Positions 3,617-43,158 of a DNA stretch of 64,000 bases are shown in pieces (position 1 is the first letter of the stretch; each line of letters begins with the position of its first letter). Under the pieces are notes generated by a model. It had not been told where the DNA came from. It did not search any database and saw nothing but the letters and a program-made list of their open reading frames with translations. Where the stretch lies: the sequence record SRR2962707_940, one strand, 5' to 3'. A program made the position numbers and the translations under genes.

Positions 3617-3709
3617 GAATGGTCCTATGTTTTGTGTTTTGGCATTACAGCCTTGTTTTTGGCGCTAATCCATCGGATAGCAAGAGCCAAGTTCGGCGAA
3701 AAGAATTCG

Positions 3710-3730
3710 TTAACCAAAATTCTTGGTTAA
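3710..3730. promoter_or_regulatory. Palindrome TTAACCAA-N5-TTGGTTAA (CtrA half-site-like) in the pepA/lptF divergent region
   Basis: Perfect 8-bp inverted repeat read directly from the sequence; function inferred. Confidence 0.45.
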
Positions 3731-3762
3731 GTTTTAGCCCAGTGCGTTTACTGGTTAATGGA

Positions 3763-3800
3763 TTATTGCAAACAGTGCTAACATTTTATCGATGTTAGCA
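3763..3800 (+). promoter_or_regulatory. Putative lptF promoter/operator: 23-bp motif shared with surA plus palindrome TGCTAACAT-N7-ATGTTAGCA
   Basis: 3763-3785 matches 8512-8534 at 20/23 positions; 9-bp inverted repeat at 3776-3784/3792-3800. Confidence 0.5.
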
Positions 3801-3808
3801 AAGCACAA

Positions 3809-4996
3809 ATGGGATTAGGCTTGAAGACCATCGAGCGCTACATTTTAAAACGCGTTGCTATCGCCAGCCTTGGTTCGACGATAGCGATTGTTGTGCTTGT
3901 CTGGATTACGCAAGTCGCTCAACGCATTGATTTCGCAACCGGAACGGGCGGGTCGATGGCGACGTTCCTGTTATTCATGGTTTTGCTTATCCCGCAAATG
4001 ATTTCTGCATTGCTGCCATTCGGCATTGGGTTTGGCGCGGTTCAAGTTTTAAATGCGATGAACCAAGATTCTGAAATGCCGGTCATATCCAGTGCCGGAT
4101 TCGGCCGCTGGCGCGTTGCCCGCCCCTTTCTAATCGTTGGGCTGGTAGCTTCTCTTTATGTATTGCTTTCAAATATATTTATCGAGCCCCGTGCAAATTT
4201 GGCTGCGCGCGATGTTCTTGTCCAAGCACGCTCAGACCTTTTAACAACGCTCATTCAGCCTGGCCGATTTACGAAGGCAGAAGATAATTTGACTATTTTT
4301 GTCGACGGTAAAACTGGCGGCAATTTAGAACGCATTATGATTTCGGATACACGCGACCCGGAAACAAGCCTTATTTATTATGCTAAATCTGGCGCTGTGG
4401 GCGAAGTCGATGGCGACACGCTTCTCATTATGGTCAACGGTGAGATTCACCGAAAACCACGCAATTCAGAGCAGATCACCATTATTCGCTTTTCTTCTTA
4501 TGCGATTAGCCTTTCGCAATTTGCCAGTGCTGGTGGCAAGCAAAATTATTATATACATGAGCGCTCTACCGCCTATTTGCTTAACCCAGACAAAGATGAC
4601 CGCGCCATAAAAAGCCAGCCTGGCATTGCAAAGGCTGAGCTTAATCGCCGCCTTTCGGACTTCTTTTATCCGATACTTATGTCCATTGTTGGTCTCGTCT
4701 TGGCCGGTACGCCGCGCTCGCACCGCGGCATCAGTTTCCTCAACCATCTGTTGGTTTTTGGTGCAGCCCTTGGTTACCGCGGATTGGCCGGTTTCGCGAT
4801 GAGCAGCAATAAAATAACCGCCGATCAGCTTTATCTGTTCTATCTCATTCCGCTGGCGGGCATCGCCCTTAGCGCTTGGATGTATTCAACTGAACGCACC
4901 GTGGGCGTACCGCAATTTGTCTTGATCAAATATGATCAGGTCGCCAATTTCGTTCAATCCATTTATGGGCGTAAATCATCGCGGGGGGCTTCGTGA
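3809..4996 (+). CDS. lptF: LPS export ABC transporter permease LptF
   Basis: YjgP/YjgQ-type 3TM-periplasmic-3TM layout; DSE motif; divergent from pepA and followed by lptG and lptD. Confidence 0.88.
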   Translation: MGLGLKTIERYILKRVAIASLGSTIAIVVLVWITQVAQRIDFATGTGGSMATFLLFMVLLIPQMISALLPFGIGFGAVQVLNAMNQDSEMPVISSAGFGRWRVARPFLIVGLVASLYVLLSNIFIEPRANLAARDVLVQARSDLLTTLIQPGRFTKAEDNLTIFVDGKTGGNLERIMISDTRDPETSLIYYAKSGAVGEVDGDTLLIMVNGEIHRKPRNSEQITIIRFSSYAISLSQFASAGGKQNYYIHERSTAYLLNPDKDDRAIKSQPGIAKAELNRRLSDFFYPILMSIVGLVLAGTPRSHRGISFLNHLLVFGAALGYRGLAGFAMSSNKITADQLYLFYLIPLAGIALSAWMYSTERTVGVPQFVLIKYDQVANFVQSIYGRKSSRGAS

Positions 4997-39849: not shown

Positions 39850-40311
39850 CTATTCTTCCGTTTCGTGATCGGGATGCTGATAGTTTTTTAAGTCGGCCAG
39901 AAATGGCGCATCGGCAAGATCATCCAATGTGTGGCGCTGAGGCAAATTCGGTAGATCGTCGCACCAAATGCGCTTTCCTTCTGAACCATATTCAATGGTT
40001 GGCGGCACTGCATCTGGATTATCAAAGCTCATCACCGTCAGCGCCAAACCATCAGGCGCATCATAAGCGAGCGGCGTGCCGCACTTTGAGCAAAAGCCTC
40101 TGCGTGCAGCGCTAGATGATTCAAACCAAGCGGGCGTTCCGCGTGTCCACTCCACCGGCTTTTCGCCCGGGCCAACCAACGCCAAGCCGGTTGCGGCCGA
40201 CGCTTTTTGGCACATGCGGCAATAGCAAATTGATGATGTGCCTGCATCGCCGGTCACGCGAAAACGCACCGCGCCGCATTGGCAGCCGCCGGTTAAAATT
40301 TGGCGCGTCAT
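39850..40311 (-). CDS. GFA/CENP-V family Zn protein
   Basis: [29 protein letters not shown]. Confidence 0.9.
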   Translation of the reverse strand: MTRQILTGGCQCGAVRFRVTGDAGTSSICYCRMCQKASAATGLALVGPGEKPVEWTRGTPAWFESSSAARRGFCSKCGTPLAYDAPDGLALTVMSFDNPDAVPPTIEYGSEGKRIWCDDLPNLPQRHTLDDLADAPFLADLKNYQHPDHETEE

Positions 40312-40763
40312 GTGTCAAAATCCGGATGCTGGTGATTGGTTGATGTTACATCATCAAGACCGCCGGGCAGATCATCACGGTTCACAGATTTACCCGCTAG
40401 GCTTCCAAGCGCCTCAAAGAAATGTACTTTCGCTTCAACACCATCATTGCTGATGGGCACCACAGCATTTGGATCATCGAGCGAACCAAGTGTGATGGCA
40501 ACGCCGTTTGATTGCAGCGTATCGAATAAGAGCGGCGTGCCGCATTGGTTGCAGAACCCGCGCCGAACCGGATCGGATGATTGAAACCAAGACACTTCGC
40601 CGCGTGTGATTTTGAATGTATCGCCAGCGGCAAAGGCAAGCGGCATGAAGTAATTTCCCGATGCCTTCTGGCACATGCGGCAATGACACAAATGCGGGGA
40701 ATCAAGTTCACCGTTGATGCGATAACGCACCGCGCCGCACTGACACCCGCCGCTTAGTTTCAT
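40308..40763 (-). CDS. GFA/CENP-V family Zn protein
   Basis: [32 protein letters not shown] 40763 overlaps the cysS stop. Confidence 0.9.
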
Positions 40764-42181
40764 CTTTTCACTTCCCAAGTCGTGACACGCTCGCCGGTAC
40801 TTGAGTCTTTTGAATCCTTTAGCTGAATTCCTTGAGACAGTAGTTCATCGCGGATACGGTCAGCTTCTGCAAAATTTTTGTCTGCAAAATGCGCTAAGCG
40901 CGTGGCAATCGCAGCTTCAATAATAGAAGCATCAATGTCGCTGGTTGGTGCTGCATCCGGCAAACCGAGCAATGAAAGGGCTTCGGCCAATGGCGCACCT
41001 GAGAGCTTGCTCAGCTGATGGATTGCATCAGACGTATTCAGATCATCTGCCAGTGCATCAATGATTGATGACACTTCGCCAGCGTCTTCGGCCTCAACAC
41101 GGCGCCAAATTTTCGACAACACGGCTTCAGCCTCTTCCAAGCGCTTCACGCTAAAGTCGATTGGCTCGCGGTAATGGGTCATCAGCATAGCAAGGCGTAA
41201 AACTGCACCTGGCCATTTACGACCACCTAATTTTTCCGTCGCAAGCAGCTCATGAATCGTGACGAAATTACCGTCCGATTTGCTCATCTTTTTGCCTTCA
41301 ACCTGCAGGTAGCCATTATGCATCCAGATGTTGGCCATCTTTTTGGTGTCGTGGGCACAGCAGCTTTGGGCAATTTCATTTTCGTGGTGTGGGAAAATCA
41401 AATCCAAACCACCGCCATGAATGTCAAATGTTTCGCCTAAATAAGCCGCGCTCATCGCCGAACATTCAATATGCCAGCCCGGGCGTCCGTGGATGGTCTC
41501 GCCATCGAATGACGCATCCCAGCCCGGCTCATCGGCGTTTGATTCTTTCCAAAGCACAAAATCGCCTGCGTTCTTTTTATGCGTTTTGGCTTCGATGCGT
41601 GCGCCTGCCTGCTGGTCTTCCAGCTTGCGGTTTGAGAGCGCGCCATAGGCGTCCATCGAAGTGACATCAAAAAGCACTTCGCGCCCCTCGCCGCCGGTGG
41701 CAACATAGGCATGTTTTTTCTCAATCAACGTCTGAATGATGCTCGCCATATCAGCTTTGCCATCGGCGCGCGGCAAAACGAATTCGGTGGCGCGTGGCGC
41801 AAATGTCGGCGCAAGGCAGCCAAGCGCCGATACATCTTCGTGATACTGGTCAGCTGTTTTTTCCGTGACTTTGCGGATTGCTTCGTTCAGCGGCAAATCT
41901 GGATAATCGCGCAACGCCCGCGCATTAATTTTGTCATCGACATCCGTGATATTGCGCACATAGGTGACTTTGCTTTCGCCATAGACATGACGCAGCAGAC
42001 GATAGAGCACATCAAACACAATCACCGGCCGCGCATTGCCGATATGGGCAAAATCATAGACCGTTGGTCCGCAGACATACATGCGCACATTGTCCGCATC
42101 GATAGGTTCAAAAACCTCTTTGGTGCGGGTAAGCGTGTTATAAAGATGAAGCGCTTGGCCTGACGTATTATTCTCAACCAT
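40760..42181 (-). CDS. cysS: Cysteine--tRNA ligase
   Basis: [29 protein letters not shown]. Confidence 0.98.
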
Positions 42182-42284
42182 GGTAATATTTTAGCGCCTA
42201 CGCGCATTCTCGCTGATTCTATTTCGTTCAACCGACACGCTGTATCGATTATTTCGTGGCCTGTTTCTACAATCTTATGTTTGC

Positions 42285-42313
42285 AAAAAAAAGGCCGCAC
42301 AATTGATGCGCGA
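42285..42313 (-). terminator. Minus-strand intrinsic terminator upstream of cysS
   Basis: Minus strand reads TCGCGCA-TCAAT-TGTGCGG-CC followed by T8. Confidence 0.55.
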
Positions 42314-42420
42314 TTGAAGTTTCAAAATGGCACAACTGCACCTAGAAATCGCTCAATTAGTTAAGATATTTTCTCGCTATTTTGACAGAACACTATCTCG
42401 CCGCAATGGAAATGTTTAAA

Positions 42421-42536
42421 TGGTGCTCCCGCTATGCGGGGCCGGATGCCCGAGTATAGAACTTGCGCCCCATCTTCTATGCTCTTTGTTGTAGTTTTCA
42501 CGGACCAGAGAAAATTATGATGGGCGTCCGGTACCA
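42421..42536 (+). ncRNA. Candidate structured small RNA of unknown family
   Basis: Five nested helices cover almost all 116 nt; every non-WC pair is G-U on the + strand; TTGACA at 42382-42387. Confidence 0.55.
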
Positions 42537-42552
42537 ATTCTCCTTAAATCGC

Positions 42553-43158
42553 TTAGTTTTTGATTATGAGGCTTATGGCTATCGATGCCATAATGACCGC
42601 GATTAAGAAATCTAATACGCGCCACGCAAGCGGCTTTGCGAAAAGCGGTTGTAAGAGCCGCGCACCATAACCAAGCGCAAAAAACCACACAAATGATGCT
42701 GCGACAGCGCCCAATGCAAATGCTAAGCGCGCACTTTCCATATAGGCGGTCGAAAGACTGCCGAGCAGAACCACCGTATCAAGATAGACATGGGGGTTAA
42801 GAAACGTCAGCGCGAGGCAGCTGCTCAGCGCGATTTTAAGCGGCATAAGCTTTGCTTCTGCGGCGACAAGTACATCAGGGTGAATGGCCCTTCGCAGCGC
42901 TATCAAGGCATAGCCAATAAGGAATAATGCCCCGCCCCATTTAGCAATCGAGAGCAGCACAGCATTGGCGGAGATAATGGCGCCAAAGCCGCCCACGCCA
43001 AGCGTAATCAGCACCGCATCTGAAAGTGCGCACACCAAACATAAAATGAAAACATGCTCGCGCAGCAACCCTTGGCGCAAGATGAATGCGTTTTGTGCGC
43101 CAATGGCGATAATGAGTGAAGCGCCAAGGCCAAAGCCGGCTATTGCTGCTGAAAACAC
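42553..43158 (-). CDS. LysE/ArgO family amino-acid exporter
   Basis: IAIGAQNAFILRQG and TFLNPHVYLDT. Confidence 0.93.
   Translation of the reverse strand: MFSAAIAGFGLGASLIIAIGAQNAFILRQGLLREHVFILCLVCALSDAVLITLGVGGFGAIISANAVLLSIAKWGGALFLIGYALIALRRAIHPDVLVAAEAKLMPLKIALSSCLALTFLNPHVYLDTVVLLGSLSTAYMESARLAFALGAVAASFVWFFALGYGARLLQPLFAKPLAWRVLDFLIAVIMASIAISLIIKN

Follow-up and report, generated by a model that had tools for sequence, protein, structure and literature searches.

The element and its genomic context

The window, by which we mean the whole 64-kb stretch of DNA analysed here, contains a structured element between cysS, the gene for cysteinyl-tRNA synthetase (CysRS), and a gene for a LysE-family exporter (Table 1). 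A conserved RNA gene almost certainly exists at this place, on the plus strand (42417-42540). Both flanking genes are confirmed by Pfam and lie on the minus strand, as an earlier first-pass annotation of the same DNA had stated, and an SRAP gene is found beyond the LysE-family gene. The spacer between the RNA and cysS also holds a terminator-like hairpin with a T8 run on the minus strand. This terminator would stop lysE transcripts once they have passed the complement of the RNA gene, and no counterpart was seen in the upstream sequences of the homologues that were examined. On the other side of cysS, directly downstream of it, are two tandem paralogous minus-strand genes (39850-40311 and 40308-40778) with a GFA domain, the glutathione-dependent formaldehyde-activating enzyme family; their duplication is marked by direct repeats 461 nt apart.

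Table 1. Coordinates of the RNA, its helices and the neighbouring features in the window
Feature	Position	Strand	Remarks
cysS (cysteinyl-tRNA synthetase)	40760..42181	-	Pfam tRNA-synt_1e, 1.2e-103; divergent from the RNA; start 235 nt from the model start
Terminator-like hairpin and T8 run	42285..42313	-	In the spacer that separates the RNA gene from cysS; about 100 nt upstream of the latter's start
Promoter-like region (putative)	42382..42419	+	TTGACA at 42382-87, 17 nt, AATGGA at 42405-10
Full RNA	42417..42540	+	All 128 model positions; covariance model R1, 94.1 bits, E 5.7e-20; R2, 86.9 bits, E 9.5e-19
P1, 5' arm TGGTGC	42421..42426	+	Partner GTACCA at 42531-36; weakly conserved, possibly outside the RNA
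H1 hairpin TCCCGC-TAT-GCGGGG	42427..42441	+	RNAfold; compensatory changes in 6/6 pairs
P2, 5' arm	42442..42451	+	Closes the three-way junction; partner 42522-42531; 8/10 pairs compensatory (27 rows)
P3 hairpin	42452..42484	+	Covariation in 10/10 stem pairs; apical loop 42462-42474 holds near-invariant UGCGCCCCA
P4 hairpin	42488..42521	+	Covariation in 15/15 stem pairs; apical loop 42500-42509 holds invariant GGACC
P2, 3' arm (42522-31), and P1, 3' arm (42531-36)	42522..42536	+	Sequence and RNAfold
LysE-family exporter gene	42553..43158	-	Pfam LysE, 2.9e-37; convergent with the RNA; stop codon 16 nt past P1

Fold of the RNA

The first-pass annotation had paired five helices by hand. Read base by base, P1, H1, P2, P3 and P4 are each found where it had placed them, and RNAfold agrees. 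As drawn there, P2 joins CGGATGCCC (42443-51) to GGGCGTCCG (42522-30), P3 joins 42452-61 to 42475-84 around a 13-nt loop, CTTGCGCCCCATC, and P4 joins 42488-99 to 42510-21 around a 10-nt loop; the eight G-U pairs counted under this pairing are also correct. On the plus strand, the architecture predicted by RNAfold is a 5' hairpin followed by P2, which closes the junction of P3 and P4.

The comparison with shuffled sequences that had been proposed for both strands separates them clearly. The minimum free energy (MFE) of the plus strand is -52.8 kcal/mol, against a mean of -33.6 (sd 3.9) for dinucleotide shuffles (z -4.89), and none of 200 shuffles is as low. The minus strand reaches -37.4 kcal/mol (z -2.05), a stability equalled by 6 of 200 shuffles.

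P1 is the only weak part of the structure as first drawn. Its two arms are present in the window, but the helix is absent from the consensus structure and its pairing is patchy among the homologues, where the flanks pair in certain sequences only (alignment judged by eye). The 3' arm of P1 is followed in the window by the pyrimidine-rich ATTCTCCTT, with no clear U-tract.

Homologues and copy number

Homologues were sought among 80 cysS loci, gathered with one genome per species. The closest named locus is that of Ahrensia kielensis DSM 5890, with 82% identity in CysRS. Six of the 80 loci carry a look-alike on the strand opposite to cysS, a few hundred nucleotides upstream of it: A. kielensis (L021), two of Roseitalea (L027 and L034), two of Oceaniradius (L031 and L035) and a MAG (L065). 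Covariance model R1 was built from the window and five of these six loci, and R2 was rebuilt from 15 sequences. Searches with the models retrieved 25 homologues, 15 of them window-like and 10 in a second genus. The named hosts of the window-like form are Ahrensia kielensis, Oceaniradius and Roseitalea.

The distribution is narrow. In the sample of the family, 10 of 151 genomes gave a match (8 of them strong, with E<=2.2e-10), and a covariance-model search of 150 other genomes sampled from the order gave none. Among the nearest relatives of A. kielensis, 5 of 41 are positive, A. kielensis itself counted; one further relative has its cysS upstream region beyond a contig end. The second genus, that of genome G120, where the first match was a weak one, is positive in 10 of 11 genomes. 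The RNA is conserved in two clades of a small marine group within the Rhizobiales.

The remaining 74 cysS loci gave only two matches, one of 12.6 bits at the syntenic place in Oricola indica (L032) and one of 12.2 bits in L068. The Oricola indica sequence (3702-3829, minus strand) has a P2-like stem and a P4-like hairpin with the loop CGCGGACCAGG, and is without the P3 loop motif. It may represent a relative of the RNA that has diverged or is decaying, and it was left out of the counts. A metagenome search with the pattern TTGCGCCCCAT...CGGACCAG returned at least 120 stretches; the pattern is too loose, and none of the 80 loci examined fits the model. In one window-like genome only (L093), an extra perfect hairpin, AACGCGACCGC-TTCG-GCGGTCGCGTT, stands directly after the RNA, without a U-run.

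A hairpin-rich look is the one property that the element shares with a dispersed structured repeat of the MITE-like or REP-like kind, an alternative raised in the first-pass annotation together with a copy-number check. In the 64-kb window, a 20-mer taken from P2/P3 has a single occurrence even when up to three mismatches are allowed, blastn of the element against the window returns the self-match only, and none of the repeat families of the window touches it. In all relatives searched, every positive genome has one full-length copy (5/5 in the first genome set) and the syntenic position is constant; the sole extra match, in G002, is partial and covers 40 nt of the reverse strand at that place. 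With no dispersed copies in the window or in the positive relatives, the repeat reading is refuted, and we consider its probability to be practically nil.

Covariation and transcribed strand

The stems show extensive covariation, which had been suggested as a check on the fold. In an alignment of 15 sequences, 93.3% of the cells pair and 37 of the 43 pairs are changed on both sides. The covariation score is 0.619, compared with 0.238 in shuffles, and none of 500 shuffles matches the observed values. When the partners are slid by one to three columns as a control, pairing in the same sequences falls to 37-47%. The larger alignment A4, of 27 rows, is 94.3% paired, with compensatory changes in 40 of the 43 pairs; it consists of 26 real sequences and one spurious reverse-strand row from L088, which was excluded from the loop, G-U/A-C and strand-MFE counts. 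The match in L095 (genome G040) was judged spurious or partial and was omitted from the alignments. Since the alignments were fitted to the model, they are biased towards structure; even so, the effect is so large, and the slid controls fall so far below it, that chance is implausible.

The first-pass annotation had argued for the plus strand because its G-U pairs would become A-C mismatches on the other strand, and this argument holds across the homologues. At paired columns, G-U exceeds A-C by 86 to 6 in the first 15 sequences and by 93 to 5 in the 16 window-like sequences, an excess that identifies the window's plus strand as the RNA strand. The corresponding counts in the 10 sequences of the second genus are 19 and 8. 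Similarly, the MFE of the plus strand is below that of the minus strand in 15 of the 16 window-like sequences and in 4 of the 10 of the second genus, where the strand is indicated instead by a U-run after P4.

These counts bear on the possibility that the element belongs to the minus strand, as a 3' UTR structure or terminator of lysE or SRAP, or as a small ORF (42361-42537, 58 aa, or a frame reading MGRK... from the complement of the P3 loop). The end of lysE is only 16 nt away, the minus-strand terminator follows at 42313-42285 and the complement of the P3 loop includes an ATG. Besides the ratio of 93 to 5, however, a minus-strand RNA would bear about 13% C-A mismatches, its fold is weak and the upstream minus-strand gene differs between genomes; the reading frames are unconserved past four codons set by the loop, and Pfam finds nothing in the 58-aa ORF. 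We regard a minus-strand element as highly improbable.

Transcription signals

The TTGACA hexamer reported upstream of the element is present as stated. GTTTAA, at 42414-19 in the window, aligns with a -10-like block, YTAC[CGA], which in 10 of the 16 window-like sequences lies exactly 5 nt before the model start, with near variants in most of the others. About 20 nt further upstream, a CCTGTTCAAG block is common to six genomes amid otherwise diverged spacers. It is plausible from these motifs that the RNA has its own plus-strand promoter. The claim goes no further than this because a sigma-70 consensus scan returns no plus-strand promoter at the window element, TTGACA is followed there by AATGGA, and the window has GTTTAA at the position of the block.

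At the 3' end, the window-like form has no U-tract terminator after P2, in agreement with the first-pass annotation. In the second genus, P4 followed by the U-run was scored as terminator-like on the RNA strand in both loci scanned (L227 and L228), and the RNA would end there, at the P4 hairpin and U-run. The YTAC[CGA] block at a fixed distance and this hairpin with its U-run, together with the covariation and the excess of G-U over A-C, lend good support to the earlier proposal of an independent plus-strand RNA.

In the second genus, a conserved near-palindrome, TACCCCAWATGGGTGATGCG, is observed between the RNA and cysS, approximately 35-60 nt upstream of the RNA, in L094, L224, L228, L229 and L230. 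It may bind a regulator or belong to the promoter.

Conserved loops and candidate targets

The junction strands vary in length and sequence; the apical loops are fixed and the stems covary. The P3 loop is TGCGCCCCA in 24 of the 26 sequences and TGTGCCCCA in two. Within it, the motif UGCGCCCCA becomes UGUGCCCCA in 2 of 26, so that the consensus UGYGCCCCA fits all 26, and GGACC in the P4 loop is likewise found in 26 of 26. The stems could be pictured as a scaffold and the P3 and P4 loops as the working parts, through which the RNA would act in trans; its partner would be a G-rich target, recognised by base pairing, or else a protein.

The near-invariance of the C-rich P3 loop makes it plausible that the RNA acts in trans by way of this loop. 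The first-pass annotation had proposed a trans-acting sRNA with a C-rich seed loop; the conservation of the loop supports that part of the proposal, while the targets considered here (cysS, lysE, folA and the start regions of the window) gave negative results. The cysS mRNA has no recurrent loop-complementary site in seven genomes. When 111 ORFs of the window were compared at their translation-start regions, the best pairing was about 2 sd from the mean. The start region of lysE reaches -19.4 kcal/mol in the window, and values of -6.5 to -17.2 kcal/mol at inconsistent places in eight other genomes.

The 10-mer TGGGGCGCAA, the complement of the P3 loop, occurs 52 times in genomes G001, G003, G017, G101 and G312, versus 13 times for its reversed control. 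Most of the 30 sites examined fall inside long ORFs, two of them at the MGRKT motif of DHFR, and codon and dinucleotide bias is therefore the likely source of the excess. We rejected folA as a target, as ATGGGGCGCAA is found at the DHFR motif in 4 of 9 genomes with a strong match to the RNA (5 of 10 once the weak G040 is added) versus 21 of 54 RNA-less genomes.

The P3 loop contains UGC followed by G, and its only variant contains UGU followed by G, so that a Cys codon is present in either case. The RNA might then bind tRNA-Cys or CysRS, with the P3 loop reading the anticodon of tRNA-Cys as a T-box specifier does, although in trans. Compatible with this are the linkage of the RNA to cysS and the six pairs that UUUGCG could make with the anticodon loop CUGCAAA of tRNA-Cys from two RNA-bearing genomes. 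We nevertheless consider such binding very unlikely. By our estimate, a loop of 9-11 nt contains some Cys codon by chance in about 1 case in 4, the CAUGUG variant pairs poorly with the anticodon loop, and the equally invariant GCCCCA and GGACC are left unexplained. In the P4 loop, GGA is preceded by C, A or G and never by U, which leaves no UGGN for the tRNA 3' end; moreover, the RNA is on the strand opposite to cysS and has no T-box match in Rfam. Full-length duplexes of the RNA and tRNA-Cys are no better than shuffles, 94 of 200 and 42 of 200 of which are equal or better. We give scant credence to the wider suggestion that a trans RNA beside cysS couples Cys charging to expression, with the P3 loop reading tRNA-Cys or both loops binding CysRS. 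If true, a Gram-negative lineage that lost the Cys-codon attenuator would be using the logic of a T-box in trans.

Neighbouring genes and possible roles in cis

The neighbours of the RNA differ between the two clades. In the window and in all 14 window-like homologues with the flank present, cysS adjoins the RNA divergently; L096 begins at a contig end and its upstream side is missing from this count. The cysS start is located 184-281 nt from the model start in the window and in all window-like homologues measured but L093 (13 of 14), where no cysS start was located. The convergent gene 3' of the RNA is lysE in about half of these loci and SRAP or others elsewhere. In the second genus, all ten loci have the RNA approximately 100 nt upstream of map, the gene for methionine aminopeptidase, on the same strand. 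There, cysS is the divergent upstream gene in four loci and is absent from the 1.5 kb upstream in another four, the upstream side being cut off in two. The map gene is absent from the window and from all 80 cysS loci. Neither neighbour is needed everywhere and the RNA is kept, which makes a cis role at cysS or at map less likely.

The constant place on the map side raises the possibility of a cis-acting 5' leader, attenuator-like or riboswitch-like in the second genus, with P4 as a regulated terminator and the RNA of the window's clade as an orphan after rearrangement. The terminator-like P4 and U-run and the same-strand arrangement in 10/10 loci would fit such a leader. We hold it to be quite unlikely, since in the window-like form the next gene is convergent and the RNA is under strong structural selection despite having no map. 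Only the apical loops are conserved and the junction nucleotides are not, unlike in ligand-binding aptamers. No alternative antiterminator pairing was seen by eye in the second-genus sequences, and map may have its own promoter in a conserved block that separates it from the terminator. A ligand-binding aptamer was rejected in its own right, because the junction is variable and the window's clade has no same-strand downstream gene.

On the cysS side, a ribosome-mediated Cys-codon attenuator, the uORFC-8-2 motif, is described upstream of cysS in Rhodobacterales (PMC8632094). A Cys-codon leader ORF 120-300 nt upstream of cysS is found in at least 48 of 72 related RNA-less loci (for example MKTSFAICGICIIG, MNTTLIKPSPACCIIKDIIG and MRTTSICICSIIIC), counted by a strict rule, with two further loci too short to judge. 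In Rhizobiales, such leader ORFs are followed by hairpins (e.g., L002, L024 and L036, among L002-L080) and represent the same kind of attenuator as uORFC-8-2 (PMC8632094). None of the six RNA-bearing cysS loci has a Cys leader ORF, and the 371-nt spacer of the window lacks one too. Three second-genus loci with an adjacent cysS carry the leader ORF as well as the RNA, indicating that the RNA is no simple attenuator substitute. Like uORFC-8-2 (PMC8632094), the window RNA is found upstream of cysS in Alphaproteobacteria, but it is on the opposite strand, is without a Cys leader ORF and, in the second genus, occurs together with such a leader. A GGACCAG motif common to the RNA and the Cys-attenuator leaders was dismissed as a coincidence, as by eye it lies in the variable stem of the attenuators.

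The RNA could be a locus-specific regulator of cysS. Its transcription would interfere with the promoter, or it would serve as an antisense to a cysS 5' leader long enough to begin upstream of the element; for the window's clade, the RNA would stand in for the ribosome-mediated Cys-codon attenuator. The place 184-281 nt upstream of cysS in the window-like form, the contrast of 0/6 with at least 48/72 loci for the leader ORF and the divergent cysS of four second-genus loci are all in line with this. Conversely, four second-genus loci keep the RNA without cysS within 1.5 kb, and the three loci that hold both leader ORF and RNA indicate that the two are not alternatives. The sequence of the spacer between the RNA and cysS is unconserved among the homologues, in the window a minus-strand terminator interrupts it, and the cysS mRNA offers the loops no recurring complementary site. 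Regulation of cysS by these means therefore seems unlikely to us, although the tight linkage to cysS in the window's clade and the missing Cys leader ORF may leave room for a cis or locus-specific role.

An independent RNA acting in trans fits best with the rigid covarying stems, the invariant loops, the single copy, the RNA's own transcription signals and the changing neighbours. On balance, we favour a single-copy structured sRNA gene of approximately 105-125 nt, back to back with cysS, that would be transcribed from its own promoter and would act in trans via its loops; judged from sequence comparison, it would be a cis regulator of neither neighbour.

Relation to known RNAs

No catalogued family matches the element. 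Rfam 15 gives no match at gathering score in the whole window. At E<=10, the region 42150-42750 yields only a chance lncRNA match outside the element. For eight homologue loci, the sole match is a chance one elsewhere (E 0.99). ARAGORN finds no tRNA or tmRNA in the window. The first-pass annotation had likewise not recognised the element as a tRNA, SRP, 6S, tmRNA or riboswitch. As judged from search results, the full-text literature on cysS leaders, Rhizobiales sRNAs and Ahrensia small RNAs contains no description of this RNA, and no sRNA of Ahrensia/Oceaniradius/Roseitalea-type Rhizobiales is described in the literature searched.

The RNA constitutes a new family. Its general kind is familiar, its architecture is unusual and its tie to cysS is intriguing but unproven. 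It would add a well-supported structured RNA to the poorly studied marine Rhizobiales of the Ahrensia/Oceaniradius/Roseitalea type, and its design is unusual for an sRNA: long covarying stems carry a pair of invariant loops, which one clade has in a closed three-way junction and the other as a hairpin with a terminator. Its place beside cysS, in a clade without the usual Cys attenuator, provides a testable lead on the control of aminoacyl-tRNA synthetases in Alphaproteobacteria. Should it prove to be an ordinary sRNA whose targets are unrelated, Rfam would still gain a clean new family.

T-boxes belong essentially to Gram-positive bacteria. The RNA is reminiscent of them in being structured, in standing beside an aminoacyl-tRNA synthetase gene and in having a conserved loop where a Cys codon precedes a purine. 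Its strand, however, is the wrong one for a cis leader of cysS, and it has no T-box sequence, antiterminator or Rfam T-box match. A T-box riboswitch was rejected on the grounds of the strand opposite to cysS, the lack of UGGN in the P4 loop and the missing Rfam match.

Divergently encoded pairs of an sRNA and a protein gene are known from enterobacteria, as in micF/ompC and oxyS/oxyR. The present arrangement is likewise back to back, with an intergenic region that may serve both genes in regulation. There is no homology to these pairs, and a housekeeping synthetase takes the place of their regulator or porin.

The AbcR/alpha-r15 and alpha-r14 'cuckoo' families of alphaproteobacterial sRNAs have C-rich hairpin loops, and both are in Rfam. 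The closed three-way junction of the window-like RNA, without a U-tract and without an Rfam 15 match, sets it apart from them, and its loops UGYGCCCCA and GGACC differ from their anti-Shine-Dalgarno type, CUCCCA/CCUCCUCCC. The likeness lies in a size of about 100-130 nt, an intergenic gene with a promoter of its own (putative here) and covarying stems combined with a fixed C-rich loop; the RNA of the second genus further shares with these families the terminal hairpin and U-run.
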